Shown in pieces: positions 11,775 to 57,293 of a DNA stretch of 64,000 nucleotides. This stretch comes from an uncultured Methanosarcinales archaeon (GTDB lineage Archaea; Nanobdellota; Nanobdellia; Woesearchaeales; UBA583), in assembly GCA_964621065.1 (NCBI GenBank), contig CAZULG010000002.1, positions 61,878-125,877 of the forward strand, given 5' to 3'. Position 1 is the stretch's first letter, and the number at the start of each line of letters is the position of its first letter. Under the pieces are notes generated by a model. It was not told where the DNA came from and made no database searches. It worked only from the letters and a program-made list of their open reading frames with translations. Position numbers and translations under genes: made by a program.

Positions 11775-11813
11775 ACTAATTTATTACTATAAGTTTTCTT
11801 AAATCTTTCTGTT

Positions 11814-12653
11814 TTATTTTTTAATGAGTAAATAATTACTTCCTTTTTGTTCTTTAATTTTAAAGTTATTTTCTTCAAGGAGTTTTAATACTTCTTCTTT
11901 GTGTTTATTTCTTTGCCAAATTTCAATAAATATTTTAGTAGTTGGTTTTAATTGTTTAAGTGTATTCTTCATTCCTTTCAATACTTCATATTCAAATCCT
12001 TCTACATCAATTTTGATAAAATTAATATTTTCTACTTTTAATTTATTATTTTTACTATATTCATCAAATGTTATTTGTTTAACAGATATTAATTCTTCAT
12101 TTTCTTGTTTCTTGTAATGTTTTTTGTCTTGAATAACTCTACTCCCACCTGTGTGAGTTTTATTTTTTGCAAAAATTAATTCAGATGTTTTAGAACCTAG
12201 CGCAATATTGTTTGGAATTATTTTTTTCTTTAAATTATTTAAATTAATATTTTTGTTCAAAATTTTGAATGTATCAGGATTTGCTTCAAATGTGTGGATT
12301 TCTTTGAAATTATTTTCATTCGCTAAAAAAGAATAAAAACCAATGTTTCCTCCAATATCTATAAAGGTATTGTTATTTTTTGTATTTGGAATGTAGTGTT
12401 GCAAATAATATTCAAAATATGGAGAACTTTTACCAATTGTATCATTATTAGGATATACTGAAAATTTTCCTAATTTATTTTGAATTATCATTTCTTTCTT
12501 TTTGTTTTTAAGAAATCTTTGAGTGGGTTGTTTTAGAAATGGAATAAATGATGAGACTAATGTTAAATGTTTAATAATTAAGAAGTTGAGTTTTGATCCT
12601 TTGAGCACTTTTGTTTTAAAAGTTGTGTCTAAATACATTTTTATTTGTTTCAT
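11814..12653 (-). CDS. FkbM-family methyltransferase
   Basis: FIDIGGNIGFYS (SAM motif I) and FIKIDVEGFEYEVLKG. The true start may be an internal Met. Confidence 0.7.
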   Translation of the reverse strand: MKQIKMYLDTTFKTKVLKGSKLNFLIIKHLTLVSSFIPFLKQPTQRFLKNKKKEMIIQNKLGKFSVYPNNDTIGKSSPYFEYYLQHYIPNTKNNNTFIDIGGNIGFYSFLANENNFKEIHTFEANPDTFKILNKNINLNNLKKKIIPNNIALGSKTSELIFAKNKTHTGGSRVIQDKKHYKKQENEELISVKQITFDEYSKNNKLKVENINFIKIDVEGFEYEVLKGMKNTLKQLKPTTKIFIEIWQRNKHKEEVLKLLEENNFKIKEQKGSNYLLIKK

Positions 12654-12655
12654 AT

Positions 12656-13603
12656 TTATTTATACTTCCATTTCTTTAATAAATCTTCTCTAATTAAGCC
12701 TTTCTTATTTAGTAATTCATTTACTTTTTTAGCTTCAATTTGTGTTAAATTTCTTAAATATTTTTTATCTTTCTCACTGACTTCTATTTTTTCATCCTTA
12801 GAATTTAATTTCATAAAAAAAGAATATATCTTTTTCTTTTGATTCTGACTAATAATTTTACTTATAATTTTTTTAATTCTTAAATTGGGATTTCTAATGA
12901 ATTGTTGTAAAAACAAATTTCTAGGAGATTTACCAGGATTTTTATTTTCAAATTTATAATTTTTGAAAAAATCATCATCTACTTCTAGAAAGCTTAAAAT
13001 ATTTTGCACTTCTTTCTTGGTATTTTTTACAAAATCTTCAAATATAACAACTTTAATATTTTTTACAGGAAACAATTTTACATATCTTTTAATTTGTTCT
13101 TCAAATTTAATCATTTCACTATAATACAAAAAAGAAGGTTGTTTACATGCTTTGGGGATTTTTTTTAATTTTTTTCTCTTTTTTTCTAGTCTAATACTTT
13201 TTATTATATTTTTTTGATTTTCATGTCCCATTTTAATTGCATGATTATGCCATGAAGTAAGAAAATTTAAGGGATCTCTTATCATAATTATTATTTTAGC
13301 GTTAGGATTATGGTTATATATTTGTTCTGCTGCAACTCTTGAATATAAATAATTTGGAGATTTATCTCCTAGTAAAACATTAGAATCAATATCTTTGAAT
13401 AAATTGAAGTAATCTGTTTCATTTCTAATATTATAGAACTTATTATGTTTATGATATTTACTTGATTCTTTATGAAAATCTTTACAGAAATAGTTAGGTT
13501 CTTGTAAAACTTTAATTTTATCTGATTCATTCAAATAATTAGCTAATGAGGAAGTGCCTGTTTTTTGAAAACCTACTATAAAAAAGTCCACTTTTTTTTC
13601 CAT
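12656..13603 (-). CDS. Sulfotransferase (second copy, different subfamily)
   Basis: GFQKTGTSSLANYL (PSB loop) and MIRDPLNFLTSWHNH. Confidence 0.7.
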   Translation of the reverse strand: MEKKVDFFIVGFQKTGTSSLANYLNESDKIKVLQEPNYFCKDFHKESSKYHKHNKFYNIRNETDYFNLFKDIDSNVLLGDKSPNYLYSRVAAEQIYNHNPNAKIIIMIRDPLNFLTSWHNHAIKMGHENQKNIIKSIRLEKKRKKLKKIPKACKQPSFLYYSEMIKFEEQIKRYVKLFPVKNIKVVIFEDFVKNTKKEVQNILSFLEVDDDFFKNYKFENKNPGKSPRNLFLQQFIRNPNLRIKKIISKIISQNQKKKIYSFFMKLNSKDEKIEVSEKDKKYLRNLTQIEAKKVNELLNKKGLIREDLLKKWKYK

Positions 13604-13605
13604 TT

Positions 13606-14679
13606 TTATTTATAATAATTATTTATAATTTTAGCCATCTTCTCAACTTGTTTTTCAACTGAGAGAGTCTTAATATATTCAAGTCCATTTTCTTTTAAAT
13701 CTTTGTATAATTCTTTATCTTTATAGAGTAAATTTATTTGTTTTTGTAATTCTCTCCAATTACCTTCTTTAAATAATAATCCATTGTAGTAATTATCAAT
13801 TGTTCTATATGTCCCCCCTGAATCTGCACAAATAGGAACTGCTCCAACAGACATTGCTTCTAATTGAACTTTTCCTTGTTTTTCTCCAAAAGATGGCATC
13901 ACTACAATATCTGCTCGAGAGAGTTTTTCAAAAAATAATTTTCTATTGTATATTTTACCATGAAATTTAATAGTAACATGTTTTGCTAATTTTTGATGTT
14001 GTTTTCTTTGTAATTTATCAAGCCCTATAATGTTTAATTCTTTATTTGAATGCTGAAGTGCTTTTAGTAATAATAATAATCCTTTTCTATTTTCTTCTCC
14101 TCCAACGAAGAATATTTTATTTGTTAATGTATTTTTAATTAATTTTTTGTCTCTATTAAATTCTGAGCAAGAAATAATTTCATATTGATTCAAATGATTT
14201 TTTTGATTTGTGGTTATATTTGAAGTGTAGAATATTAAATTATTCTTGAAAATAAATTTTGAAATTGAATCATAAAATAATTTAAATATTGGATACGTTA
14301 AAAATCTAATTGGTTTTGTGAAGAAGTTTCCATTATGAATATATTGTCCTAAAACATCTCCCTTTACCCAAAAAATACATTTATTATTTCGCAATTTTAA
14401 TCCCCAATAAAGTGCTTTAAAACCCATAGGATAATGCATAAAATATAATGAATTATTTTTGTCTCTAGAAGTATTAAATTCAGAAATTTGTTTTAAATAA
14501 ATGCTACTTTCAATAATTTGAAATTTATTTAAATCCAGTTTATTTTTTTTAAATAAATATCCATAATAATTAATATTAAAATGTTTTGATAATTCATTTA
14601 CAAAATGAGCTCTTTGAATATAATGTTTATTATCATACTTGTAGATTTTATCATTAGTTATATATTTCAACTCTTTCAT
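13606..14679 (-). CDS. Glycosyltransferase family 4
   Basis: VVMPSFGEKQGKVQLEAMSVGAVPICADSGG. Confidence 0.7.
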   Translation of the reverse strand: MKELKYITNDKIYKYDNKHYIQRAHFVNELSKHFNINYYGYLFKKNKLDLNKFQIIESSIYLKQISEFNTSRDKNNSLYFMHYPMGFKALYWGLKLRNNKCIFWVKGDVLGQYIHNGNFFTKPIRFLTYPIFKLFYDSISKFIFKNNLIFYTSNITTNQKNHLNQYEIISCSEFNRDKKLIKNTLTNKIFFVGGEENRKGLLLLLKALQHSNKELNIIGLDKLQRKQHQKLAKHVTIKFHGKIYNRKLFFEKLSRADIVVMPSFGEKQGKVQLEAMSVGAVPICADSGGTYRTIDNYYNGLLFKEGNWRELQKQINLLYKDKELYKDLKENGLEYIKTLSVEKQVEKMAKIINNYYK

Positions 14680-15344
14680 TTTTTTCTACATATATAAAAA
14701 ATATGACTTCCTTGATATTTATTTATGAATCTATCTTTTATTAAAAAATGCTTTTCAAGTAATTTTTCAAATTCTCTTTTTTTCATATTCTTTCTTCCGA
14801 TTTCCCAAAAGTGTTCTTCATGATTAATCTTATTATAAATTGGAATCTTGAATAAAAAATTAAATTTATTCAAGTAAGGAAATTTAATAAAACCATTGAA
14901 AGTTATACCAACATAAGGTATACTTATAATAATATCTTTTTTTGTTACCTTTGATAATTTTTGTAATAATTTATTTAAATCTTTTTTAGGAAAGTGTTCA
15001 AGAACCTCAAATAAACATAAACAATCAAAATCATTACTATCTATTATTTTATCAATTTCATATATATCTCCAACAATATCTGGATTTAATTCTGAATCAA
15101 CATCAAAAGAACTAATATTTACTTTTTTTTTATCAGGAAGCATATTATTATATTTTTTTACCATACTTGGAACAATATCATCTCCAACACCAATATACAA
15201 TACTTTTTTTCCTTCATATTTCATCATTAATTTTACTTGATAAAAATAATCTGTAAACCTTTCAATACTTGAATATTTCTCAAATCTATAATGCTCTTTT
15301 TCAACTTGTTTCTCATTAACAATTCTCATATCACTCTTTCCCAT
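14676..15344 (-). CDS. Class I SAM-dependent methyltransferase
   Basis: VLYIGVGDD (motif I) and CLFEVLEHFP (post-II/III). The likely start is MRIVNEK, a few codons in. Confidence 0.6.
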   Translation of the reverse strand: MGKSDMRIVNEKQVEKEHYRFEKYSSIERFTDYFYQVKLMMKYEGKKVLYIGVGDDIVPSMVKKYNNMLPDKKKVNISSFDVDSELNPDIVGDIYEIDKIIDSNDFDCLCLFEVLEHFPKKDLNKLLQKLSKVTKKDIIISIPYVGITFNGFIKFPYLNKFNFLFKIPIYNKINHEEHFWEIGRKNMKKREFEKLLEKHFLIKDRFINKYQGSHIFYICRKK

Positions 15345-16507
15345 TCTTTAATTATATTTTGTGTTGAAAAGTTTTTAACTCTTTCTAATCCTTTTAGAGA
15401 GTATTGTTCTTTTAAAGTTTTGTTTTCTACTATTTCTTTCATCAATTCAAATAATTGCTTTTCTTCAACATGAGATTTATCTGAAAAAGGCTTAAACAAA
15501 ATACCATACTCTCCATAGTAAGGATATTTAATCTTCTCATCAATTTTTAATTGAGGAGCAAGAATTTCTCGAGGACCATAATTACAATCAGCACTTATAA
15601 CCGGTTTATTTAAATATAATGCTTCAAGCAACACATTTCCAAATCCTTCATATATAGATGAAAATACAAAACAATCGCTTTTTTGAATAAATGAAAAAAC
15701 ATTGTTTTGATTCCCAAGCAAATAAATATTATCTTGTAAATTTAAAGAATTAATTAAATGTTGGAGTTCTTTTCTTAATTTTCCCTCGCCTAAAATAATA
15801 AGCTTACAGTTTTTATTGTAATTTACTAATTTTTTAAAAGCTCTTATTAAATATTTATGAGCTTTTTGTTGTTCTAATCTACCAATTGTAATAAATATTT
15901 TATCATTTTTAGCAAAAAAATTTTTATATTTTGAAGGCAACTTTTCTTTTTTTAAAGAATTTATTTTTTCTAAGTTAACAGTATTATAAATAGTAGTAGT
16001 TTTCTTTGAATTTACACCAACAAATTTTTGTAAGTAATTCTCAACTCCTCTTGATAAAGAAACAACTTTATCAGCTCTATTATATAAAAATTGAGTTAAT
16101 TTTTTGTAAATAATTCTCTGTCTTGAAGGATCATTTCTTTGAGAAACAACAATCCTACTCCTATTTCTAAATAAAATTCTACTCAAAACGAGTGGAAAAT
16201 TTGCTTCTTCCATAAATCCAATAGAAGTATCAATGTTGTGTTTTTTGCAATATTTAGCAATCGCTCTTGCTCTTGTAAACAACTTAGAAGATTGAATCAA
16301 CATATTAGAAGAATCCTTCTCTTTTAACGAAGTATATTTTCCACTAAATTCATATTTTTGTTTCCTATCAAAAAATGTCAAAAAATGAACTTCATACTCT
16401 CTATTATTCAGCTCAGTTCCAATAATTGAAGCAACCCTCTCAGCTCCTCCTCCAAGTTTTAAAGATGAAATAACAATTAAAACTCTCTTCTTCATACTCC
16501 TACACAA
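15326..16507 (-). CDS. Glycosyltransferase family 4
   Basis: GGAERV N-terminal motif and FVFSSIYEGFGNVLLEALYLNKPVISAD. The probable start is MKKRVLIV. Confidence 0.75.
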   Translation of the reverse strand: MCRSMKKRVLIVISSLKLGGGAERVASIIGTELNNREYEVHFLTFFDRKQKYEFSGKYTSLKEKDSSNMLIQSSKLFTRARAIAKYCKKHNIDTSIGFMEEANFPLVLSRILFRNRSRIVVSQRNDPSRQRIIYKKLTQFLYNRADKVVSLSRGVENYLQKFVGVNSKKTTTIYNTVNLEKINSLKKEKLPSKYKNFFAKNDKIFITIGRLEQQKAHKYLIRAFKKLVNYNKNCKLIILGEGKLRKELQHLINSLNLQDNIYLLGNQNNVFSFIQKSDCFVFSSIYEGFGNVLLEALYLNKPVISADCNYGPREILAPQLKIDEKIKYPYYGEYGILFKPFSDKSHVEEKQLFELMKEIVENKTLKEQYSLKGLERVKNFSTQNIIKEWERVI

Positions 16508-16620
16508 ACAACTTTATTTAATAAATCTATGGTGTTATAGCAAAAGAGAACAAAACAATCACAAAATTGTAAGAACACATTTGAAATTAAAATAACAAGT
16601 TAAGTTTATGAATTAACATT

Positions 16621-16800
16621 ATGACACAGACTATTACAATTAATAAAGATGATTTGTATAATTTAATTAGAAAAGCTCTAAGAGCAGAATTAGATGATAT
16701 TCAATATGTATCAAATAAAGAACAAGAAGAAATAGATGCATTATACAAAGATTCTCTACAAGATGAGAAGTATGATTCAAAACATTGTGTTAGACTATAA
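16621..16800 (+). CDS. Small ORF (59 aa), putative antitoxin of a decayed module
   Basis: MTQTITINKDDLYNLIRKALRAELDDIQYVSNKEQEEIDALYKDSLQDEKYDSKHCVRL*. It falls below the ORF-track size cut-off and is followed at once by a toxin-like remnant. Confidence 0.35.
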   Translation: MTQTITINKDDLYNLIRKALRAELDDIQYVSNKEQEEIDALYKDSLQDEKYDSKHCVRL

Positions 16801-16916
16801 AATCGTATGATGTTGATATTCACAATAAAGCGTATACATTCATCACCTCTTTAAATAATTTTGAGAATATTCTATATAAAATGAAAATTTTAAATCTGGA
16901 GAAAAATTGGACTTAG
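16794..16916 (+). pseudogene. Truncated RelE/ParE-like toxin remnant (N-terminal ~40 codons, no ATG)
   Basis: The frame overlapping the stop of the 59-aa ORF reads TIKSYDVDIHNKAYTFITSLNNFENILYKMKILNLEKNWT*. This has the layout of a toxin N-terminus and then is cut off. Confidence 0.3.
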
Positions 16917-16945
16917 ACATAAGAAAATACAAATCCCTAAAAATA

Positions 16946-17262
16946 TTATTTTAAATCATAAGCATAGTAATGATGTTTGTAGTCTTCAAAAAAAATAACT
17001 TCACCTTCAATTCGAAATAATAATACAAAGTGAGAATTAACATGAACTCGTTTAAATTTTTGATGTGGTTTTTTGAGATTTTGCTTTAGCAAAATACAAG
17101 AACGAGTATAATGAGTGTCTCGTATTTTTATAATGTTCAAGATCTTGAGAAGTACAAATCTCTTAAATTTTTCTATCTACATTTTCAAAACTTGATTTAT
17201 CTTTTTTAGACAATTTTCGAAGAGTTTTTAATAATGTTTCACTTAAATAATATTTATGCATT
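16946..17262 (-). pseudogene. RelE/ParE-like toxin pseudogene (in-frame TAA plus frameshift)
   Basis: MHKYYLSETLLKTLRKLSKKDKSSFENVDRKI*EICTSQDLEHYKN in one frame. After a frameshift, the ORF-track frame reads ..KFKRVHVNSHFVLLFRIEGEVIFFEDYKHHYYAYDLK, a typical toxin C-terminal beta-strand region. Confidence 0.45.
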
Positions 17263-17344
17263 TTTAATTAGCAAATCTAACTCTTCTATTGAATTAAACC
17301 CAACATGCTCTTCATTTTCAATTCTTATCAATTCATCTCAATAA

Positions 17345-18397
17345 TTATTTCAATATTTTTCTCAACTGCTTCGCTATAACTTGAATATCAAACTCATTTT
17401 CTATAATTTTACGATTTTCACGACCTACTTTTTCACGAAGAGAAGGATGTTCATATAATTTCAATAATTTTTCTCTAAGCTCATGAGAAGTTTTAAAGCG
17501 CATATTCTCATCTTTAATGAGTACATTATTTTGTTCAATATCACTTACAACACAAGGTAAACTCATAGCCATTGCCTCAAGTAGTGCATTACTCATCCCT
17601 TCAGTAAATGAAGCCAATACAAACACATCACTCTCTTGTAATATTGAAATAACATCATCTCTTTTCCCGAGCACATGAACTCTCTTACTCAAGTTCAATT
17701 CATCAATTTTCATCTCAATTTCTCTACGATACGCACCATCATTGAGCAGAATCAAATGACCCTCAACATTACAAAATGCTTCAAGTAAAGCAAAATGATT
17801 TTTTTGTTTCTCAAGACGCGCATTACAACACACAACAAACTCTTGAGAAGAAATATTCAACTCCTCTCGAATAGAGTAGTGAGTAGCTGATTTTTTATCA
17901 ATTTCTTTTAAATTTACTCCATTTGGAAGAATTAAATACTCAAAAACTCTAATTTTCTCCATATACTCTCTTAGACCTTTTGAGTTAGGAATATAGCGAG
18001 TCACTAGCCATCGTGAGTACTTATCAATTAGCCAGAGCTTTGAAATTTTTGAATAATCATTGCGAATTGAACAATAAATAGTATGCACTCCAAATAATCG
18101 ACCCACAATTCGTCCAAAAATATCAGCGTGAATGAGAAGTGTAAATAATACATCGGGTTTAAATTTCTTTACAATTTTATAAAATCTATATATAGAACGA
18201 AGAGGATTAAACTTCTTACCAGTATTTAAATATTTAACACGAATTCCATGACTCTCCAACTCAGGACCTCTATCATCAACTCCAGTAATACTCACAACAA
18301 GTATTTTATTTGTATCTAAATGAGGTAACACATTGGTTAAAAATTTCTCAGCTCCTCCCTGCCCAAGACCTGTAATTAAAAACAGAGTTTTTCTCAT
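17345..18397 (-). CDS. Glycosyltransferase family 4
   Basis: GGAEKF N-terminal motif and FVLASFTEGMSNALLEAMAMSLPCVVSD. Confidence 0.75.
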   Translation of the reverse strand: MRKTLFLITGLGQGGAEKFLTNVLPHLDTNKILVVSITGVDDRGPELESHGIRVKYLNTGKKFNPLRSIYRFYKIVKKFKPDVLFTLLIHADIFGRIVGRLFGVHTIYCSIRNDYSKISKLWLIDKYSRWLVTRYIPNSKGLREYMEKIRVFEYLILPNGVNLKEIDKKSATHYSIREELNISSQEFVVCCNARLEKQKNHFALLEAFCNVEGHLILLNDGAYRREIEMKIDELNLSKRVHVLGKRDDVISILQESDVFVLASFTEGMSNALLEAMAMSLPCVVSDIEQNNVLIKDENMRFKTSHELREKLLKLYEHPSLREKVGRENRKIIENEFDIQVIAKQLRKILK

Positions 18398-20641: not shown

Positions 20642-20784
20642 CCCCGCTTAGCTCAGTGGTAGAGCATTCGGCTGTAAAATGTTATGGTGATAGGTTAATT
20701 AGTAACTTGGATGAAACCAAACCAGTCAATGTTTATAATCATGCAGTACCCGAAGTGTCCCTGGTTCAAGTCCGGGAGCGGGGA
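20642..20784 (+). tRNA. tRNA-Tyr (GUA) with a 71-nt intron at the canonical 37/38 position (intron 20678-20748)
   Basis: Acceptor CCCCGCT/AGCGGGG plus A73, with a C1-G72 pair. D arm GCTC-AGTGGTA-GAGC. Anticodon stem TTCGG/CCGAA, loop CT-GTA-A..C. T arm CCTGG-TTCAAGT-CCGGG. BHB: CTGT(32-35) pairs with GCAG before the 3' site, with 3-nt bulges AA|A and TA|C. Confidence 0.85.
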
Positions 20785-48228: not shown

Positions 48229-48699
48229 TTTTCTTTTTACCCACTATTTTTCAGGGTAAGTTTGAGTTCACTCATATTCTTATAATAAAGCGACCTTTCA
48301 ATAATTGTTAACCAATTCTATTGATTAAAGGTTAATGAGTATAATTTTCTAATAGTATTAGAAATTACACTAACCTCACTAATCTAATTGAGTTTATAAA
48401 TGTTTATTTTCTAAATCTCTATTCAAAAAAATGAGTCATAAATAGAATTTTAAATGTAGTATCCTTTTAAGTATATACATTAGTTAATAATTTAACTAAG
48501 TTTGAAATGATACTTTGAAAGGGTTTAGATGCAAAATTTCTTTGTATGATGAAGATAAAAATAAAAATAAAAAAATGAGAGCACTCATGATTTTTAAGGA
48601 ACATTGAGACATTGTAAATCTAATTTAATTGAAAAATAAACTTAGAATGATTTTCTCCTAAAAATTTTATTAATTAAAAATTTTAATTCAATAAATTTG

Positions 48700-49155
48700 A
48701 GGAATAAAAAAATTGCATAAGCAATTTTCATTCTCAAATTATACCAAAATACACTCAACACCATTTCTTTTTTCTTCAAAAATTGATTCTTTAAATGTAA
48801 ATTTCGAAAAAAAAGAATTTGATTATTCTCTACATCTATTAAAATATTTAATTTATGAAATGGATTTTTAGGTTTTCAAATGATTTAGTTATTTTTAATG
48901 TTTTATATAATACGAAGATTTAGACTCAGAATTAATCCCTGATATATCAATTGCTACGATTTTAGAATTTAAATTTAAAAGAGTTTTTTCAATAAATTTT
49001 CTAAGAAAGTTAAGTGAGAAGTATTTGAACCAATGATGAAGAGTTGAACGAGTTGGATTCTTTTTGAGTTGTGACCAACTTTTCCATTTAGTCTCTCTAG
49101 ATTCACTGCAAAAATCTCGAAGAGATTTTTTAAAGCGAATGAAAAGGAGCACCAT
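48700..49155 (-). mobile_element. Fragmented DDE transposase gene (IS4/IS5-like), non-functional
   Basis: The 86-aa ORF ..SLRDFCSE..PTRSTLHHWFKYFSLNFLRKFIEKTLLNLNSKIVAIDISGINSESKSSYY resembles the HTH-to-first-Asp region. After the stop, a shifted frame reads ..KNPFHKLNILIDVENNQILFF (second-Asp-like). No intact ORF or terminal inverted repeats were found. Confidence 0.35.
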
Positions 49156-49446
49156 ATAAACTTGTTGATAATTGGTATATAATTTACAACCTCGCTTAAA
49201 ATTGTGGCTGTTTAACTTTAAAGAGAAGCAAATTCTTATAATTTACCTATGAAAATTATTATTAAACTGGTAGAAGTAGTTCATAAAAAATAACTAATTT
49301 ACCTATTTTTAAATTAATTTCACTCATAAAGTTTAGTTAAATAAATTTTCGAACAGAGCCTATTCTTTTAAAATTAACACTTTATATCTATAAACCTAAT
49401 TATAGCATTTAAAATAATAACTTGAAAATAATCAATATTAAATTGA

Positions 49447-49683
49447 TTATTCTGCTACTTTAGATTCTTTTTCTTCTAAGTCTAGAAATGTTACATCAAC
49501 AGCTTGTTTCCCCCTTTGAGTTTCTTGTGGCTCAAAATCAACTCTTTGCTCATCTGCTTCTTTAATATTTCCTTGATTTTCAGGGAGTTGTGTGTAGTGA
49601 ACGAAATATTCGTCTCCACTTTCTTCTTCTTTAATGAATCCATATCCCTTCTCTGTGTTGTACCATTTAAATGTTCCTTTCAT
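49447..49683 (-). CDS. Cold-shock domain protein (CspA-like) with acidic C-terminal tail
   Basis: MKGTFKWYNTEKGYGFIKEE..DEYFVHYTQL: RNP1 (KGYGFI) and RNP2 (FVHY) motifs. Confidence 0.85.
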   Translation of the reverse strand: MKGTFKWYNTEKGYGFIKEEESGDEYFVHYTQLPENQGNIKEADEQRVDFEPQETQRGKQAVDVTFLDLEEKESKVAE

Positions 49684-50460
49684 TTTTAATTAATATTTAA
49701 GAATAACAACTATGAATTTGATATTACTATTAAAACATACTATCTATAATCTTTATGTACTCTTAAATAATTAATATTAAGGCCTAGTGATTAATAAAGT
49801 TATGTGTTATTTGAGAAGTTATTATTATTAAATATAGTTACTTTTTTGAATAGGAGTTGGTAAATACGAATTGTCTAAGTCTTCCAGAGGAGGTATTAAA
49901 ATTCCTATCAGGTTAAGTACTCAACTATCTCTATTTGAGTTGGAGAAAAATAACATTGAGAAGGAACTTCTAGTTTGTAATATAAAAAAGTACCCACTTC
50001 CACCTATGCTCTTGAAAGATTTGTTCCATTGCCTCATTTGTATTTATTCCATTAATTCCAAATTTATTACTTGCAATGAAAAATTTCTCATCTTTAAAAT
50101 CAAATATTTAAGAGTAAATATCAATTTTTTAATCACTCTTATTTCTTTTAACAATTGAATAACAATAAGGAGAAGTTCTTAATTTTATAAAAAAATTAAA
50201 ACTTTTTATAAGTAATCTTGGTTTTTTGATCAATAAATAATGTAGTTTTGTTTTTGAATCTTTAATTAGTCTAAAATTATTTTTACTATTTTTATCAATT
50301 CTTTTAACTAAACTCATATTGTAATATAAATATTATTGTTTAGTAGTTTTTGTAGTCGGGTAGCATATGTAACTTGACTACACACTCACTTAATAAATTG
50401 AAAAAAACTCAATTGTAAAATATCTATCATAGTTTTATATATCTTTTATATTATATATAA

Positions 50461-50745
50461 TATGAAACAAACTAAATTTTATCAAAGTGAAAATGAGACT
50501 TCAACAAAAGAATTGAATTTGAAACTGTCTTCTTATTTATTTGAAGAACCTCAAAGTTATTCTAAATCATCTAAGTATACAAATATGCAAGAATTAATTT
50601 GAGAAGCTATAAGTGATAAATTGTTTAATTCAAAGTTCAAGAGGAGCATATTGAGAAGATTCTCTCAAGCACTGATTACCAAGAAACAATTGGACATAAA
50701 AAAAAGTCTAGAGCCACTCCATCAACTTCAACAGTATGCAAATGA
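50461..50745 (+). pseudogene. Ribbon-helix-helix (CopG-like) antitoxin-type gene with in-frame TGA
   Basis: MKQTKFYQSENETSTKELNLKLSSYLFEE..YTNMQELI*EAISDKL.. The RHH layout is interrupted where an Arg codon is expected. TGA is a genuine stop in this genome (trxB ends in TGA). Confidence 0.35.
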
Positions 50746-51029
50746 ATAAAAAAGAGTTTGAATTCACAAAAAACTTTGATTTAAAAAAATCAAAGGGAAA
50801 GAAGCACAAAATGTTATTATTAAAATTAATAAAATAATCAGTTGTGAGAATATTAATCATTATAAAACCTTTAACACAAAGTTAAATTTCTCAAGCGAAG
50901 TTCATGTTAATTCTTCTTATGTTATTTCATTTTAAGATAAAAATAAAAAAATTATTTTTGTAGGTTACGAACATTATGACAAAATATATAAGAAATAATT
51001 CAAGTTTGCAGAGCAAAATTATAAAAAAT

Positions 51030-54000
51030 TTATTTTCTTCCAAATGCAAACCAGGAGAAGAAATCATCTTCCTCTTTTTCATCTTCTAATTTTTTCTCTC
51101 GAATTTCTTTTGATCGCTCTTGTGCAACTTCTTTTCCTTTTGAAATTGGAACGCTCTTCCACGAATCTTTTAAATAATTACAATCACGAATAATTGAAGA
51201 ATTCAACTGTTTAAACGCAGGAGTTGTAAGTGTACTAGCGTATGTTTTTGAGAGTCTCTTTTCTTCATCACCAATGAACTTTTGAATTCTCTTTTTCACT
51301 TGCTTTAGTTCATCTTGAAACTCTGATTTTGTTGTTGCTTGTTGATTTGCACTGTAAAAGTGAGTAAGTAATTCAATATAAGATTTCTCATACACCTCTC
51401 TAAATTCTAAGATGAATTGTTTATATTCTTCAAATTCATCAACACTTAGTGTTGTATTTTTAATCTCTTGTACTTTTTGCTCAAACTCTCTAAATTCAAC
51501 ATACTTCTCTAGTTGTGTTCTAAGTTGCTCTAATTCTTCATGTACTTGGCTTTGTGTTTGCTCAATTACTTCTTGAGAAATTGTTTGAGTCGTTGTTGTC
51601 ATCTCTTCTTGAAGTGAGTTGAATGTTGAATCAACACGCTCTTCTAATTGAGTAATCTCTTCTTGAAGTGATTGAATGTTTGATAGATCTTCAATTTCTA
51701 TTTGTTGATTATCAACTCTTCCTCTCAACTCATCTACAGTTTTAATGACTTCTTCAAGTGCTGAGGAGTCAAACTCGACTGAATTTTGAATTGTCTCAAT
51801 ATGACTCTCAACTCGCTCTTCAACACTCTTCTCAATTGTATTTGTCACTTCTTCACGAATCTCCTCTCTAAACTCTGTATTTGACTGCTCTGATTGTTCA
51901 AGTGAATTATACTGCTCAGCTAACTCTTCTAATTGTTTTTGAACTGAGTTGAGTTGAGTTGTAATTTCATCTTTACTCATAATTTTTTGATCAAGTACTG
52001 AGACTTCGTGTTGCATTTCTTCTCTCATCTCACTTGAGACTTCTTCAACTGAGTGTGTAACACTCTCAATTCTCTCTTGTAGCTCTTGAATTGTTTGTGA
52101 TAATTCTTCAACCTCTTCTTTTTGTGCGTACTCCTCACTATCAAAGTTTTGAACTTCATCACTATCAACTTTTTTAGCGTCAAGTTCTTGCACTCTCTGC
52201 TCAATTGCTTCAAGTTGAGATGTCAATTCTTTGAGTTGTTTTTGCAAAGCTTCTTCATCAACTTCTTGAGGAATTTCAAGTGCGTTGAGTTGTTCTTGTA
52301 ACTCGCTCACTTGCTCTTGAAGAGGTTGAATACTCGCATTCACACTCTCTTGTTGCTCTTCAATTACTTCACTCACGTGAGTTTCAACTGTTGAGTCTAC
52401 TCGTTCTTGTATTGATGAGTCTACTTGTTCAATTTGTTCTTGTAATTGTGTAATTTGTTCATTAAAAGAGTTGATTTGTTCTTGAGTTTTTCTCACTTCT
52501 TCAACCATTTCATCATCTTGCTCTGATTCATTTTGTTCAATTTGTGTAGATAATTCCTCTGTTTTCTCTTGAATTGTATTAATAAGTTCTTGTAATTCTT
52601 CAATTTTCTCAGAGTACTCTTCAACTTCTTCACTGAGTTGAGACTGTGTGACAAATTCTTCAGTATCGAAATCTTGAACTTCATCACTATCAACTTTTCT
52701 CTCATCCATTGACTCAACATCTGTTGAAAGGGTTGTGATTTTCTCTTGGAGTTCTTCAATTGTGTCTTGAAGTGTTGTCACTGATTCTGCTGAAGCGAAT
52801 AATTCTTCATTAATGTAGGGAATTTCAATTGAGTTGAATTGCTCTTGAAGACCCCTGAATTCTTCTTTAAGTGATTGCATTTGCTCTTCAATATCTCCTT
52901 TTTGCTCTTCAATTGTCTCACTCACTTGAGTCTCAACAGTTGTTGTAATTTTCTCCTCAACACTCAAATCTAATTGTTCAAATTTCTCTTTAATCTCATC
53001 AAATTCAACTCGCTGCGCTTTATCTGCATCAAGTAAAGAGATATTTGTATCATTTTGCTCAACTCGCTCATATAATTCACTAATTTGTTCTTCATATGTT
53101 TGAATTTGTGTACGAAGTGCTTCAATTTGTTGGGTTATATCTTCTTGCGCTTTTTTCAATGTTTCAATTTCTTTATCATCTTGCTCTGATTCTTGAGAAG
53201 TATTCTCTTCAACTCGAGTTGATAATTGCTCAGTTGTTTGATGTAATGTATCAATGAGTTCTTGTAATTCTTCAATTTTCTCAGAGTACTCTTCAACTTC
53301 TTCACTGAGTTGAGATTGTGTTACATACTCATCAGTATCGAAATCTTGAACTTCATCATTATCAACTTTTCTCTCATCCATTGACTCAACATCTGTTGAG
53401 AGTGTTGTGATTTTCTCTTTGAGTGAATCAATTTCTTCTTGGAGCTCACTTAAAGATTGTGTTGATGCGAATAATTCTTCATTAATGTGGGGGATTTCAA
53501 TTGAGTTGAATTGCTCTTGAAGTGATTGTACATCTTCATGAGTTGCAAATTGTTCTTTTAATTCATCAAATTGTTTATTTGAATTTTCTTCACTTTGACT
53601 CATCTGCTCAACTCGCTCATCTAACTCACTAATTTGATTAATAATATCTTCAAGTTGGGTTTCAAGTGATTGAATGGACTCTTGCAATCTAGAGGTATCT
53701 TCTTGAGATTGTAGCTCTTCAATTTTCTCGCTCACTGTTTCAACTCGCTCATATAACTCTTCTCTACTTTCTTGAATTTGTTGTGTAACAATTTCTTGTG
53801 AAACAACAGGTTCTGTATGCTCTAACTCTTCAAGTTTCTCTTGCACTGAATTGAGAGATGTTTGAAGTGAAATAATTTGATCAGCCATTTCATCAACTGT
53901 TTCAATATTTGCTTTTGCAGAATCAACTGCTGAGAGGTCTGAATCAAGTGTTTCAATATCTGTGTCTAAACTCTCAACTTTTGAGCGTACTTCTTCAAAT

Positions 54001-55925
54001 TGTGAACTCAACTCATCCACTTGCTCATTGAGCTGAGAAACTACTTCTTGTGTTGCATATTCATCTCTATTTTCTTCTTGAGTTTGATTATTTAATTGTA
54101 CTTCTTTTAATTGTTCAATTTCGCTACGCAAATTCTCAATACTCTTTTCAAATTCTTGAAGCTGACTCATTTGAGATTGTATTTCTTGAGTTGTCTCATT
54201 ATTTGTCTTTGCAGAATCAACTGCTGAGAGGTCTGAATCAAGTGTTTCAATGTCTTTGTCTAAACTCTCAATTTTAGACTGGAGTTCTTCAATAATATTT
54301 TGAGTTGCATATGAGTTTTCAATTGCTTCAACACGCACAGATAACTCTGTAATGTCTTCATCAAGTCCTTCTTTGAGTGCAGATTTCTCAGTTGCATCTT
54401 GACTCAGTGTTGTTAGCTCATCTTTTAACTCGCTCAATGATTGCTCTACTTGAGAAATTGTAGTATTTACTTCTTCAACGCGTGAATTTAAATCATCTTT
54501 TGAAACAAAAGATTCTGTGTCAATATCTGAGACTGTGTTAATAACTTCTTCAAAAGAATCTTGAACTTGTTGAATTTTTTCTTCAACTTCTTCTTTTGTT
54601 GCTAAGCTTTGAGAATCAAATTCTTCTCGTAAATATTCAAAATCTTGAACAATCTCTTCCATTCGAGTTGTAAGTACTTCTACTTGGTTTTGAAGTGGCT
54701 CAATATCAATATCAGCTTGCTCTTGAATTTGTGGTATCTCAATTGCATTTACTTGTTCTTGTAACTCTTTGAGTTGAGTTGTAAATGCTTCAACATTTGG
54801 AATAAGTTTATCTTCAACTTCTTGTTCTAAAAATGAATCTAAGAGTTCAATTTTCTCACTGTTCTCATCAATTTTTGTCTCAATTGAGGTAACATCTGGA
54901 ATTTCAATTTCATTAAACTGTACTTGAAGTGTTTGAATTTGAGAATCTTGTGAATCAATACGCTCAACAATAGGTTCAATTTCATCACTCAAATCAGTTT
55001 TTGTAACAAATTCATCTCGCGTAGATAATTGTTGAGCAGAATCAACTAACTGATTAATTTGTTCTTCAATTCCTGATAATTGTTCTTCTCCAACTTTTTG
55101 CTGAATTTGAGCGTCCATAACTTCAATTTGTGATTGTATCTGCTCAATAATTGAGATAATTTTTTCATCAGATTGGCCTGTTGCCAAGTTTTCGTATGCT
55201 TCTTTGAGCATTTCAACTTGTTGTTGTACAATTCCAACTTGATTTGCACTATATTCGTGAACATACGTTTTGAACTCTTTGAGTTTTGAGAGAATTTGAG
55301 ATATTTTAGAACTATATTCATCAGTATGTACATATTGAACACTAAACTCTTCTTGAAGAGAGGATCTAAGTTCTTGCTCAACTTCATCTCTAATTTCTTG
55401 TTTTATCTCTTCTTTAATATTTTGAAGTATTGTTCCTTTAATTTCTTCAATTGCTAATTTTTCTTTTGATAAAAACTCATTTCGAATTGTGGTAAATTGA
55501 GACATAATCTCTCGAGCAACGTCTAATTTTTGAGAATCAATTTCATTTTGCACATTCGAAAGTTGTGTATAAATGTGTTGAGATTGAGAATGAATATATT
55601 CTTTAATTGAATCAAATGAGGGAGTGTTTGAAGAATAATTAGATAATAATTCAATTTTTTGTTTTAACTCTAACAATTCTTTTGAATGTTCAAATACATT
55701 TGCATCAACTGAGTCAAGTTGCTCTTGTAGTTGTAATAGCAACTCATCTTTACTCTTAGTACCTTCTTCTAGAGAATTTAGAGTTGCAAAAATATCGTTA
55801 ATATTTCTATTTTGAATAACTTGTTCTTGCTCTAACGATTCAACATCTGATTTAACTTTATCAAACGCTCGTTGTGCCCTATCTTCAATAGTATCTACAA
55901 ATTCAGGAGTTTTTAGTGTTTTCAT
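51030..55925 (-). CDS. Giant (1631 aa) acidic coiled-coil protein, no enzymatic motif, aromatic C-terminal peptide
   Basis: Uninterrupted ORF with a TTTATAAA box about 27 nt upstream. Glu/Gln/Ser/Ile/Leu-rich heptad-like sequence throughout. Five LQxQxNx(I/L)EIP punctuation motifs. It ends ..EDEKEEDDFFSWFAFGRK. No Walker, TM or signal motif seen. Confidence 0.85.
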   Translation of the reverse strand: MKTLKTPEFVDTIEDRAQRAFDKVKSDVESLEQEQVIQNRNINDIFATLNSLEEGTKSKDELLLQLQEQLDSVDANVFEHSKELLELKQKIELLSNYSSNTPSFDSIKEYIHSQSQHIYTQLSNVQNEIDSQKLDVAREIMSQFTTIRNEFLSKEKLAIEEIKGTILQNIKEEIKQEIRDEVEQELRSSLQEEFSVQYVHTDEYSSKISQILSKLKEFKTYVHEYSANQVGIVQQQVEMLKEAYENLATGQSDEKIISIIEQIQSQIEVMDAQIQQKVGEEQLSGIEEQINQLVDSAQQLSTRDEFVTKTDLSDEIEPIVERIDSQDSQIQTLQVQFNEIEIPDVTSIETKIDENSEKIELLDSFLEQEVEDKLIPNVEAFTTQLKELQEQVNAIEIPQIQEQADIDIEPLQNQVEVLTTRMEEIVQDFEYLREEFDSQSLATKEEVEEKIQQVQDSFEEVINTVSDIDTESFVSKDDLNSRVEEVNTTISQVEQSLSELKDELTTLSQDATEKSALKEGLDEDITELSVRVEAIENSYATQNIIEELQSKIESLDKDIETLDSDLSAVDSAKTNNETTQEIQSQMSQLQEFEKSIENLRSEIEQLKEVQLNNQTQEENRDEYATQEVVSQLNEQVDELSSQFEEVRSKVESLDTDIETLDSDLSAVDSAKANIETVDEMADQIISLQTSLNSVQEKLEELEHTEPVVSQEIVTQQIQESREELYERVETVSEKIEELQSQEDTSRLQESIQSLETQLEDIINQISELDERVEQMSQSEENSNKQFDELKEQFATHEDVQSLQEQFNSIEIPHINEELFASTQSLSELQEEIDSLKEKITTLSTDVESMDERKVDNDEVQDFDTDEYVTQSQLSEEVEEYSEKIEELQELIDTLHQTTEQLSTRVEENTSQESEQDDKEIETLKKAQEDITQQIEALRTQIQTYEEQISELYERVEQNDTNISLLDADKAQRVEFDEIKEKFEQLDLSVEEKITTTVETQVSETIEEQKGDIEEQMQSLKEEFRGLQEQFNSIEIPYINEELFASAESVTTLQDTIEELQEKITTLSTDVESMDERKVDSDEVQDFDTEEFVTQSQLSEEVEEYSEKIEELQELINTIQEKTEELSTQIEQNESEQDDEMVEEVRKTQEQINSFNEQITQLQEQIEQVDSSIQERVDSTVETHVSEVIEEQQESVNASIQPLQEQVSELQEQLNALEIPQEVDEEALQKQLKELTSQLEAIEQRVQELDAKKVDSDEVQNFDSEEYAQKEEVEELSQTIQELQERIESVTHSVEEVSSEMREEMQHEVSVLDQKIMSKDEITTQLNSVQKQLEELAEQYNSLEQSEQSNTEFREEIREEVTNTIEKSVEERVESHIETIQNSVEFDSSALEEVIKTVDELRGRVDNQQIEIEDLSNIQSLQEEITQLEERVDSTFNSLQEEMTTTTQTISQEVIEQTQSQVHEELEQLRTQLEKYVEFREFEQKVQEIKNTTLSVDEFEEYKQFILEFREVYEKSYIELLTHFYSANQQATTKSEFQDELKQVKKRIQKFIGDEEKRLSKTYASTLTTPAFKQLNSSIIRDCNYLKDSWKSVPISKGKEVAQERSKEIREKKLEDEKEEDDFFSWFAFGRK
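52585..52850. repeat. Intragenic long repeat, copy A (266 bp)
   Basis: Near-identical to 53257-53522 at an in-frame offset of 672 bp. Encodes ..LQEQFNSIEIPYINEELFAS..KITTLSTDVESMDERKVDSDEVQDFDTEEFVTQSQLSEEVEEYSEKIEELQEL. Confidence 0.9.
53257..53522. repeat. Intragenic long repeat, copy B (266 bp)
   Basis: Partner of 52585-52850. The flanks are long and nearly identical; the central ~60 bp is more diverged. Confidence 0.9.
53914..53977. repeat. Intragenic repeat, copy A (64 bp)
   Basis: tttgcagaatcaactgctgagaggtctgaatcaagtgtttcaatatctgtgtctaaactctcaa has 2 mismatches to 54208-54271, at an in-frame offset of 294 bp. Confidence 0.9.
54208..54271. repeat. Intragenic repeat, copy B (64 bp)
   Basis: Partner of 53914-53977. 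Encodes ESLD(K/T)DIETLDSDLSAVDSAK. Confidence 0.9.
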
Positions 55926-55947
55926 TATCTATATTAGTATCTCAATA

Positions 55948-55955
55948 TTTATAAA
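55948..55955 (-). promoter_or_regulatory. TATA box TTTATAAA of the giant coiled-coil gene
   Basis: The centre is 26.5 nt upstream of ATG 55925, which implies a leaderless or near-leaderless mRNA. Confidence 0.55.
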
Positions 55956-56081
55956 TATATTGTTTTTTATTACTCTAAAGTGACACGCTTGAATAAACTT
56001 TAATAAGCACATAGATATTAGGAGTGTATATCAATTTATATACAGGATTTATAAGTGTGTTTATGTTAACACTAATATACT

Positions 56082-57293
56082 ATGAAACACTACGCAATAC
56101 CTCCGTTTAAAGAATTATTAGAACATTACCCTCAAATTGTTGAGCAACTTGAATCTCAAGGATTTAAAAAACCAACTCCTATTCAACATAGAGCGTTTGA
56201 ATATGCACTACAAAAACAAGATTTACTCATTCAAGCTCCAACTGGGAGTGGAAAAACTCTTATTTATGCACTTAAAATACTCATTGAAATATTATTTAAT
56301 AATGAACTTATAAATCAATCAAATAATGATAAATCTGAGCATCATTCTCCAACTCATCTCATTATTGCACCAAATACAGTGCTCGTTGAGCAGATTTTTC
56401 AGATGATTATGCAAGTTATTCCTCCTCAATTTTCATTAAACATAATTACACTTAAGAAAAAAAAAGTGAATATTGATGAAGTTGATTGTTTAATTTCAAC
56501 TCCTAAAGTCCTCAAAGAACAACTTGAAACATTCCCTCAACTTCTTGATAATGTACAATGTTTGATTTTAGATGAAGCAGATATTTTACTCACTAAAGAT
56601 TTCTTAACACATCTTGAGAGTATTATTGAACACTTGCCCGAGAATAGACAAGATTTATTATTTTCAGCAACATATACAAAGGAGATGAATCAAGTTGCTA
56701 AAGAATATTTGCACGAGCCAAAAGTAATTGAATTGCCTTCATTAGTTGAAAAATCTCAAATCTCACAACTCATTTATATTGTTGAGAATAATGAAAAACT
56801 CTCACTACTATATCATACACTTCAACATTTAAAATTTGGATTATTACTTATCTTTGTCAATCGAAGAGAACATATTAAACAAGTTGAAGAAGTTGTAAAA
56901 TCATGTGGGTTTGAATTTAAATCAATTAGTTCTCAAAAAAGTGAGTTTGAGCGAACACGAATTTTACAAGAATTTAAAGAGCAAAAATTTGATATTTTAA
57001 TTGCAACAGATTTAATTTCACGAGGAATTGATGTTCCCCAAATCTCACACATAATTAATTATTCCATTCCACAAGATCATACAAAATATGTACACAGAAT
57101 TGGAAGAGCAACAAGACATACCAATAAAGGGGAAGTGATTAATTTTATTTCAAAAGAAGATGTAGAAAAATTTAAGCAAGTGTTACAGTCATATAAAATT
57201 GATTATAAAACAAAACAAACGCCCCAACTACAAGAACTTCCAAAATCAATACTTAAAAAGATTGAAGGAAAAGTGCAGCATAAGAAGAAATAA
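56082..57293 (+). CDS. DEAD-box ATP-dependent RNA helicase
   Basis: Q motif FKKPTPIQ, motif I APTGSGKT, II LDEAD, III SAT, VI HRIGRATR. Confidence 0.85.
   Translation: MKHYAIPPFKELLEHYPQIVEQLESQGFKKPTPIQHRAFEYALQKQDLLIQAPTGSGKTLIYALKILIEILFNNELINQSNNDKSEHHSPTHLIIAPNTVLVEQIFQMIMQVIPPQFSLNIITLKKKKVNIDEVDCLISTPKVLKEQLETFPQLLDNVQCLILDEADILLTKDFLTHLESIIEHLPENRQDLLFSATYTKEMNQVAKEYLHEPKVIELPSLVEKSQISQLIYIVENNEKLSLLYHTLQHLKFGLLLIFVNRREHIKQVEEVVKSCGFEFKSISSQKSEFERTRILQEFKEQKFDILIATDLISRGIDVPQISHIINYSIPQDHTKYVHRIGRATRHTNKGEVINFISKEDVEKFKQVLQSYKIDYKTKQTPQLQELPKSILKKIEGKVQHKKK

Follow-up and report, generated by a model that had tools for sequence, protein, structure and literature searches.

The Locus and Its Largest Gene

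The stretch of DNA analyzed here, called the window throughout, covers 64,000 nt of contig CAZULG010000002.1 (assembly GCA_964621065.1) of an uncultured archaeon, has a G+C content of about 30%, and carries on its minus strand, at 51030..55925, a single ATG-start open reading frame (ORF) of 1631 codons followed by a TAA stop (51030-51032). Its product, hereafter the giant, is a non-enzymatic, all-helical fibrous protein, polar, with a heptad-patterned rod, and it has orthologues in four loci of related archaea (L001, L002, L004, and L005). An earlier note on this DNA had described a protein of 1631 residues as the largest of the window, exactly as the ORF listing gives it (the runner-up has 881 residues); it had also supposed a DPANN-type host, and the relatives do come from metagenome-assembled genomes (MAGs) of Woesearchaeota and Nanoarchaeota.

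Regarding its composition, the giant contains 18.8% Glu, 11.4% Gln, 9.7% Ser, 8.3% Leu, and 7.8% Ile, and its 412 acidic residues against 142 basic ones give a net charge of -270; scarce residues are Pro (14), Gly (13), Trp (2), and Cys (1). The strong acidity is peculiar to this protein, because the proteins of the neighboring genes are charge-balanced; on the same ground, a halophilic proteome was ruled out as its cause. The hydrophobic fraction is 0.286, which equals 2/7 and points to a narrow a/d stripe, not to a globular core. The reported lack of a Walker motif, of a transmembrane (TM) segment, and of a signal peptide is confirmed: the Walker A pattern G....GK[ST] does not occur in the 1631 residues, and neither a TM segment nor a signal-peptide core is present, the top 19-residue Kyte-Doolittle window being 0.70.

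The Coiled-Coil Pattern and the Length of the Rod

The periodicity of the giant was followed with a windowed spectrum instead of global Fourier analysis. In 35-residue windows, the hydrophobic periodicity has a sharp peak at 3.5 residues (z = 21.5 versus shuffles), a peak present in all family members; long-range heptad coherence was not found in the global Fourier transform. A register scan in 28-residue windows found 67% of the residues to be heptad-patterned, against 4% in shuffles, with the register divided into 27 segments of 20-60 residues each (median 41). The sequence is then "heptad-like", as it had been called, in a local sense; that it is also "almost uninterrupted" holds for its helicity, with Pro/Gly-free stretches of up to 197 residues, but not for its register, with 27 segments of which the longest has 60 residues. 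The AlphaFold models of both ends contain helices of 90-100 residues running across the register shifts.

As for the core positions, Ile prevails over Val and Leu at a, and Leu is far ahead of Val and Ile at d. By the Harbury rules, an a position rich in Ile and Val together with a Leu-rich d favors parallel dimers, and this is the pattern seen in the giant. If fully helical, the rod would measure 163 nm and the whole protein 242 nm, values that are upper bounds only; a continuous rod of 200-240 nm, as first estimated, is overstated and must be taken as an upper bound as well, since the register shifts about every 41 residues and the rod alone accounts for 163 nm.

Three-Part Architecture

The protein divides into three parts, all encoded on the minus strand: a conserved N-terminal region (residues 1-377; 54795..55925), a hyper-acidic coiled-coil rod (residues 378-1474; 51504..54794), and a conserved C-terminal unit (residues 1475-1631; 51033..51503). 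This organization had escaped the earlier note, which described the coiled coil and missed the conserved N- and C-terminal regions, the non-acidic bundle with its invariant tail, and the two-fold variation in length within the family, which is due to lineage-specific duplication of modules.

The N-terminal region is all-helical, has 41-47% identity with the orthologues, and has no internal paralogues by protein self-comparison. Two blocks are invariant in its alignment (A1), Y-x-H-x-Y...QVGIVQQQ.EMLK and E.SEKI..LD.FL..EVE.KLI, which in the feature list of the giant read YVHEY..QVGIVQQQVEMLK and ENSEKIE.LD.FL..EVE.KLI. AlphaFold models the region as entirely helical, but with a pTM of 0.20. 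The rod, which bears -16 to -25 net charges per 100 residues and includes duplicated modules, is less conserved, with 27-37% identity to the orthologues.

The C-terminal unit is neutral to basic, as seen from its alignment (A3) and from the charge profile, in which the last 200 residues are neutral to basic and the rod averages about -20 per 100 residues; its identity to the orthologues is 35-58%, with a mean column identity of 68% in A3. In the AlphaFold model of the unit, a three-helix bundle is followed by a charged helix, and the tail is disordered. The predicted bundle (residues about 1495-1586; 51168..51443, minus strand) has pLDDT values of 85-96 and holds an invariant RD.NYL..SW block. 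The tail, FFSWFAFGRK (residues 1622-1631; 51033..51062, minus strand), is kept in all six C-termini available; its consensus is [DN]-F-F-[ST]-W-F-[AV]-F-[GN]-[RK]-K, with the aromatic positions invariant in the six. The heptapeptide FFSWFAF has a Wimley-White interfacial energy of -6.1 kcal/mol, against -2.0 for the next-best 7-mer, and in all five orthologues no other 7-mer comes close to that of the aromatic tail in its preference for the interface; judged on these features, it probably anchors the giant. No other ORF in the DNA examined has such a tail, and the idea that it could be a shared targeting peptide was rejected.

The Proline Hinges and the Duplicated Modules

Five proline-containing strings had been reported in the giant, and a search with the pattern LQ.Q.N.[IL]EIP finds exactly these, all on the minus strand: LQVQFNEIEIP at residues 333-343 (54897..54929), LQEQVNAIEIP at 388-398 (54732..54764), LQEQFNSIEIP at 802-812 (53490..53522) and again at 1026-1036 (52818..52850), and LQEQLNALEIP at 1209-1219 (52269..52301). 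In 20,000 shuffles of the protein the full motif never appeared, and [IL]EIP occurred on average 0.03 times, against 5 observed; the copies are not all independent, because three of the five sit in paralogous modules. A more general form of the motif, ...L-x-x-x-hydrophobic-x-x-[IL]-E-[IV]-P, is present in 1-9 copies in every orthologue, and this conservation bears out the view that it punctuates the rod; in the relatives, it is mostly followed by an acidic, Pro-rich linker and by a helix start of the type D-[TL]-S-x-[FY]-A.

The main duplicated module has a copy A at residues 784-960 (53046..53576, minus strand) and a copy B at residues 1014-1170 (52416..52886, minus strand), with 63-80% amino acid identity and, at the DNA level, 85% identity over 300 nt; a third and weaker copy, on the same strand, comes after copy B at about residues 1204-1350. 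A tandem-repeat search with TRF found only trivial short arrays in the gene, and the actual repeats, recognized by protein self-comparison, are diverged modules of about 180-225 residues. The longest exact internal repeat is 59 nt, and dN/dS between the duplicated modules is 0.40. In the giant, residues 801-900 and 1026-1124 are 80% identical to each other, against 47% for the best orthologue; likewise, in L004, residues 1351-1450 and 1487-1585 are 93% identical to each other, against 68% to the orthologue. These comparisons show that the rod modules duplicate independently in each lineage, lengthening the core.

Orthologues and the Extent of the Family

A query with the whole protein against 5.8 billion proteins returned one relative, P0001; such a query was drowned in coiled-coil words, and the conserved ends alone were used thereafter. 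On the contig of P0001 (L001), the orthologue is divergent from a DEAD-box helicase gene and its C-terminus matches that of the giant; two frameshifts divide it into three ORFs, which overlap and total about 1370 residues. The frameshifts are likely sequencing errors rather than signs of pseudogenization, because the contig has 2x coverage; the gene caller had reported the frameshifted pieces, among them those at L001 6498-6707 and 6679-7929, as proteins of 901, 64, and 416 residues. The conserved ends added P0002, an N-terminal fragment of 380 residues, and P0004, a full-length orthologue of 863 residues on a 1.09-Mb contig (L002). A scan of GTDB species genomes gave two further intact orthologues, one of 1861 residues in the MAG Nanoarchaeota archaeon PBR18_bin24 (L004) and one of 1803 residues in a MAG of Candidatus Woesearchaeota archaeon (L005). 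Each of the two lies divergent from that same helicase, the arrangement of the window. A search with the C-terminal profile found one more fragment, P0024. The known family thus amounts to seven loci, and the survey of related MAGs that had been proposed did reveal length variation, with orthologues of 863, about 1370, 1803, and 1861 residues.

The wider searches added little to this set. With the N-terminal profile, hmmsearch against 1.84 billion cluster representatives found only P0001, P0002, and P0004 at E < 1e-10; the other 19 matches were weaker (E > 1e-7), aligned to a generic coiled-coil stretch, and lacked the C-terminal domain, the tail, and the hinge motif of the family, many of them being secreted and fiber-like. 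No relatives were found in the JGI metagenome_contigs with the N- and C-terminal alignments, nor in the IMG/VR viral contigs. These negatives have limits: the large libraries evidently do not contain the protein of the window or the two GTDB orthologues, so that absence of the family elsewhere is not proven, and the word-indexed search with A3 missed P0003 and P0004, both rows of that alignment and scored at 253 and 225 bits, respectively, by a local hmmsearch, which makes the lack of a match there weak evidence. On the sequences at hand, the family appears to be small and orphan, found so far only in Woesearchaeota-type DPANN archaea.

A gene of this kind could in principle be an artifact, whether the product of a chimeric or collapsed assembly or a long ORF without meaning in AT-rich DNA of low complexity, and the internal repeats (300 nt at 85% identity) and the frameshifts of the 2x-coverage L001 contig are what such an explanation would invoke. 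It is, however, effectively refuted: five independent assemblies have long ORFs with the same N-rod-C architecture, the longest exact repeat has 59 nt, dN/dS of the modules is 0.40, and the promoter is conserved. The gene is real and under selection, and not an artifact: syntenic orthologues occur in independent assemblies with a near-invariant promoter. The earlier note had named absence from relatives, and the discovery of ATPase heads or of a known family, as grounds for abandoning its view; neither came true, and a chimeric or collapsed origin is contradicted by the orthologues and the short exact repeats.

Searches against Known Families and Structures

Scans of the giant with Pfam, NCBIfam, and PHROGs gave only sub-threshold matches, on the coiled-coil parts of the models. 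Those to SMC, Rad50, ASRP, EzrA, Apolipoprotein, Baculo_PEP_C, and the SbcC and tape-measure PHROGs were rejected as compositional. In terms of scores, ASRP (NF045487) reached 108 bits against a cut-off of 300, over profile positions 158-459 of 593 only; SMC reached 96 bits against 567, over arm positions 199-505 of 1181 only; and Rad50 reached 67 bits against 700, over arm positions 164-488 of 878 only. Lower still were TIGR04523, a helix-rich mycoplasma model (59 bits versus 270), SlaB (NF040788; 33 versus 700), arcadin-4 (NF053563; 27 versus 860), EzrA (PF06160; 19.5 versus 39.6), whose TM anchor the giant does not have, and the Pfam Filament model (PF00038; 18 versus 40, residues 1255-1631). 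Neither Pfam nor NCBIfam gave a match to the SMC hinge, and there is no CxxC zinc hook, the sole Cys of the giant being residue 1582. The statement that the protein is not SMC/Rad50-like therefore stands: heads, hinge, and zinc hook are missing, and the matches are to the arms only, far below the cut-offs.

The scores of the ASRP, SMC, and Rad50 arms, the top ones among the families, are also part of the case for a nucleoid or replisome tether, in which the rod would be a headless spacer resembling an SMC arm and the tail a non-canonical PCNA-interacting peptide (PIP-like, x-x-x-F-x-x-W-F plus basic residues). The extreme C-terminus, ...[QETAK]-x-x-F-F-[ST]-W-F... followed by R/K, would resemble archaeal C-terminal PIP boxes of the type Q-x-x-L-x-x-W-F-K-R. 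However, the putative PIP box lacks a conserved Q at position 1 and has F instead of L/I/M at position 4, the polyanionic rod would be repelled by DNA, and no replication genes are adjacent; together with the absence of ATPase heads, hinge, and zinc hook, this renders the proposal very improbable.

The sub-threshold Filament match, which falls in the C-terminal part of the rod, points to another option, namely that the giant self-assembles into a cytoskeletal filament of the intermediate filament (IF), crescentin, FilP, or Scy type, forming cables or a lattice that shape or stiffen the small cell, instead of working as one anchored tether. A long coiled-coil rod between conserved non-rod ends is the general plan of IF proteins, and the frequent register shifts are like the stutters of IF-like proteins. 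This possibility is rather unlikely: the Filament and arcadin-4 models remain below threshold, a net charge of -270 disfavors lateral self-association without counter-ions, two-fold length variation among close relatives is unusual for lattice-forming rods, normally conserved in length, and the aromatic tail is left unexplained.

As for structures, PDB profile searches with both ends gave nothing significant. The best match, with the N-terminal profile, was to reovirus sigma-1 (6GAJ/6GAO, E = 0.0025-0.0026), not significant and located in a generic coiled-coil stretch. In Foldseek searches, the C-terminal model matched nothing but generic three-helix bundles (E > 0.6), and the low-confidence N-terminal model had no matches.

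These results bear on the idea of an extracellular fiber or host-attachment filament, exported by a non-classical route and comparable to the coiled-coil proteins (CCPs) of DPANN archaea, for which a part in cell-cell interaction has been proposed, or to the trimeric fibers of viruses and bacteria. The weak best PDB matches are trimeric fibers (sigma-1, autotransporter adhesins, and a phage tail needle), the weak matches of the exhaustive search are mostly secreted or tail-fiber-like proteins, and a fast-evolving rod with a variable number of modules is typical of surface proteins. The giant also combines acidity, a near absence of Cys, many repeats, and a conserved C-terminus, a profile shared by substrates secreted via C-terminal signals, and there is a precedent in the sigma-1-like CCPs of cluster-2 DPANN archaea, including Woesearchaeota (PMC11291902). 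On the other side, no Sec/Tat signal peptide, TM segment, PGF-CTERM or other archaeosortase signal is present in the giant, whose C-terminal hydrophobic run has only seven residues; the window, L001, and L002 have no type-IV-pilus or secretion genes near it; its a/d core looks dimer-like and not trimer-like; and the fiber matches are non-significant and confined to a generic coiled-coil stretch, at about profile positions 20-125. An exported fiber is deemed unlikely.

Promoter and Genomic Neighborhood

The gene has a promoter of its own and is monocistronic. A TATA box (TTTATAAATA, 55946..55955, minus strand) has its 8-mer at -30..-23, centered 26 nt 5' of the ATG and invariant in six loci; its position at -26 corresponds to a leaderless geometry. 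Directly upstream lies a near-palindrome, GTCACTTTAGAGTAA(T)AAAAAACAA (55970..55984, minus strand), almost invariant in the same six loci (the window, L001, L002, L003, L004, and L005) and a candidate operator for a transcription factor. No further copies of the palindrome occur in the window, even at three mismatches, and a role as a regulon element was rejected for this reason. Overall, the 40 nt from about -62 to -22 5' of the ATG are nearly invariant in the six loci, a conservation to be compared with the 64-70% identity of the adjacent helicases. At the other end, a T-rich stretch right after the stop codon (51014..51029, minus strand) could, by sequence reading, be an archaeal terminator.

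On the opposite side of the promoter, the DEAD-box RNA helicase (56082..57293, plus strand) is the divergent neighbor, and it is a partner in four of the five informative loci; a leaderless-type promoter and a divergent helicase were both already indicated in the earlier note, and both are found. The pairing raises the question of whether the giant is a scaffold working with the helicase, as in a degradosome-like or RNA-granule platform, with both genes under joint control from the intergenic region between them. The divergent arrangement across 112-156 bp in the window, L001, L004, and L005, the conserved palindrome between the two promoters, and the cold-shock-domain gene downstream in the window would agree with this proposal; however, in L002 the helicase is not adjacent and the promoter block and palindrome remain with the giant gene, the genomes are related rather closely, with helicases of 64-70% identity, and the synteny may be plain inheritance, neither Pfam nor NCBIfam detects an RNA-binding or RNase domain in the giant, and its acidic rod would not bind RNA directly. 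A role as helicase scaffold is thus highly improbable.

The neighbors in the window encode L11, a TrmB-family regulator, a cold-shock-domain protein, the DEAD-box helicase, Glu/Gln-tRNA synthetase, and GrpE, and a DHH/DHHA2 gene is convergent, 3' of the orthologue, in L001, L002, and L004. No pilus, secretion, division, or chromosome-segregation genes linked to the giant were found in the window or in the L001 and L002 neighborhoods. The 2.8 kb located 3' of the gene (48230-51029) are gene-poor, with a G+C content of about 26% and apparent gene remnants. They include the cold-shock-domain gene (49447-49683, minus strand; PF00313, E = 1.4e-16), a member of a family uncommon in archaea, an ORF of 86 residues with no Pfam match (48895-49155, minus strand), and an ORF of 46 residues (50462-50602, plus strand) convergent with the giant gene. 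The latter has 69% identity over 32 residues to the middle of an ORF of 114 residues placed equivalently, 3' of the orthologue, in L005 (15487-15831, minus strand; no Pfam match); given its early stop, it is either truncated or a pseudogene.

Other features were noted farther away. About 35 kb from the giant gene, a cluster of glycosyltransferase, sulfotransferase, FkbM-methyltransferase, and polysaccharide-flippase genes occupies 10000-16000 of the window, with a G+C content of 22-24%, the lowest of the window against about 30% elsewhere; it may be a horizontally acquired surface-glycan island. At 20642-20784 (plus strand), beside tRNA-Asp and tRNA-Lys, Rfam recognizes a third tRNA of 143 nt, missed by ARAGORN in bacterial mode; a tRNA of such length implies the presence of a long intron, in keeping with an archaeal genome. 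In L002, two genes downstream of the orthologue, a protein of 1241 residues (13705-17430, plus strand) combines GH19 and GH18 chitinase domains with ChitinaseA_N domains, a notable find in a DPANN genome; its surroundings include 2OG-Fe(II) oxygenase/Ofd1-like genes and a SWEET (MtN3_slv) gene.

Proposed Role of the Giant

The reading favored here, held tentatively and at less than even confidence, is that of a dimeric coiled-coil protein which works in the cytoplasm as a tether or scaffold and whose C-terminal tail docks it to the membrane or to a partner protein. A cytoplasmic location had been presumed before and is most likely, there being no signal peptide or TM segment. The protein would stay in the cytoplasm and pair in parallel as a two-stranded coiled coil; the interface-seeking tail, together with the neutral-to-basic bundle, would attach the C-terminus on the cytoplasmic side of the membrane, either to the membrane itself or to a partner at that site. 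Membrane and nucleic acid would repel the polyanionic rod, which, because of this repulsion, would project the conserved N-terminal region away from the anchor, so that the molecule could serve as a tether, a spacer, or a scaffold in the manner of the golgins or of Mycoplasma HMW2. The IEIP/Pro linkers would be the hinges, and module duplication would tune the reach, up to about 160-240 nm if the protein were fully extended.

A more specific version takes the analogy with golgins and HMW2 further and pictures, in ultra-small DPANN archaea, a membrane-docked, polyanionic, hinge-jointed dimer with a reach of roughly 100-240 nm, comparable to the cell diameter, which would position a partner bound at the N-terminus, for instance at a host-contact or division site; the length of the rod would then be an evolvable ruler for the geometry of the cell or of the contact zone. 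In this detailed form, the proposal is speculative and on balance quite unlikely.

Several points weigh against a docked tether. The heptad register breaks about every 41 residues, and the chain may fold back into helical bundles. Membrane binding by the tail rests on a hydrophobicity scale for bacterial/eukaryotic-type lipids only, and the aromatic patch of seven residues may just as well serve to dock the giant to a protein. Stable homodimeric coiled coils do not usually have a net charge like -270 and so few basic residues, and such an acidic homodimer may need counter-ions or a basic partner; the parallel pairing, for its part, is inferred from the a/d composition. Finally, the neighborhood is of the housekeeping type and offers no functional linkage.

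In terms of significance, a headless rod protein of 1,600-1,900 residues takes up about 0.4% of a DPANN genome of roughly 1 Mb, and its retention under purifying selection, behind a promoter conserved so strongly, implies that it does structural work of importance in little-known cells. The family also offers experimental handles: its N-terminal region is conserved, its small C-terminal bundle is conserved too and bears the invariant aromatic tail, and its natural members range in length from 863 to 1861 residues. With the conserved ends, these length variants make the cytoskeleton, tether, and ruler hypotheses directly testable as soon as there is a Woesearchaeota co-culture or a heterologous system. 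Even if the giant were only a lineage-specific scaffold, it would still be a useful marker family and a caution against the annotation "SMC-like".

Comparison with Known Systems

Among curated families, the arms of SMC, Rad50, SbcC, and ASRP have the highest raw scores and a length comparable to that of the giant, and the survey of 22 proteomes by Rose et al. (2005) found no prokaryotic coiled coils longer than those of the SMC/MukB/Rad50/SbcC ATPases (PMC1322226). The giant differs in that heads, hinge, and CxxC hook are absent and the scores are 3- to 15-fold below the cut-offs.

A second comparison is with the CCPs of DPANN archaea. Hamm et al. (2024) described uncharacterized, lineage-specific CCPs in cluster-2 DPANN, including Woesearchaeota and Nanoarchaeota, which were reported to resemble reovirus sigma-1 (6GAO) and whose loci were selected for adjacent type-IV-pilus-like genes (CpaF, TadC, and pilins; PMC11291902). 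The giant is likewise a lineage-specific coiled-coil protein of DPANN archaea, and sigma-1 is also the top, albeit weak, PDB match of its N-terminal region (E = 0.0025); the two are set apart by genomic context, since the surroundings of the giant gene in the window, and of its orthologues in L001 and L002, contain no type-IV-pilus-like genes. The earlier claim that nothing comparable is characterized in archaea accordingly needs qualification: the DPANN CCPs have been described, although they are uncharacterized and lie in another genomic context.

Crescentin, FilP, Scy, and arcadin-4 share with the giant a long, non-enzymatic coiled-coil rod of irregular register and have proposed or proven cytoskeletal roles; the giant reaches no model threshold among them and differs by its extreme acidity, its aromatic tail, and the variable length of its rod.

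HMW2 of Mycoplasma pneumoniae is a giant, non-enzymatic, cytoplasmic coiled-coil protein of about 1800 residues, part of the cytadherence organelle, with Pro-containing breaks. The likeness lies in a Pro-interrupted rod of a very large non-enzymatic protein in a minimal-genome cell; HMW2 has, however, no sequence relationship with the giant, belongs to another domain of life, and is far less acidic, and it is not known to have a conserved three-helix bundle plus aromatic tail like those described here. HMW2 is listed among the prokaryotic long coiled-coil proteins (PMC1322226).

With golgins and other long coiled-coil tethers, the giant shares the logic of its architecture, in which hinge-like breaks divide a long coiled coil into segments and the N-terminus forms a short conserved region; at its C-terminus, the neutral-to-basic bundle and the aromatic tail would be a putative counterpart of their attachment device. 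In eukaryotes, the length of golgins defines their reach. The comparison is one of analogy only, because the giant has no homology to them and no GRIP or GRAB domain or tail-anchor TM segment, and a DPANN cell is not expected to have an endomembrane system.

In conclusion, since the giant fails every tested defining feature of the SMC/Rad50, ASRP, arcadin-4, EzrA, IF-like, and secreted surface families, it is best ranked as a new family of a known broad kind, that of the long structural coiled-coil proteins, and not as something categorically new.

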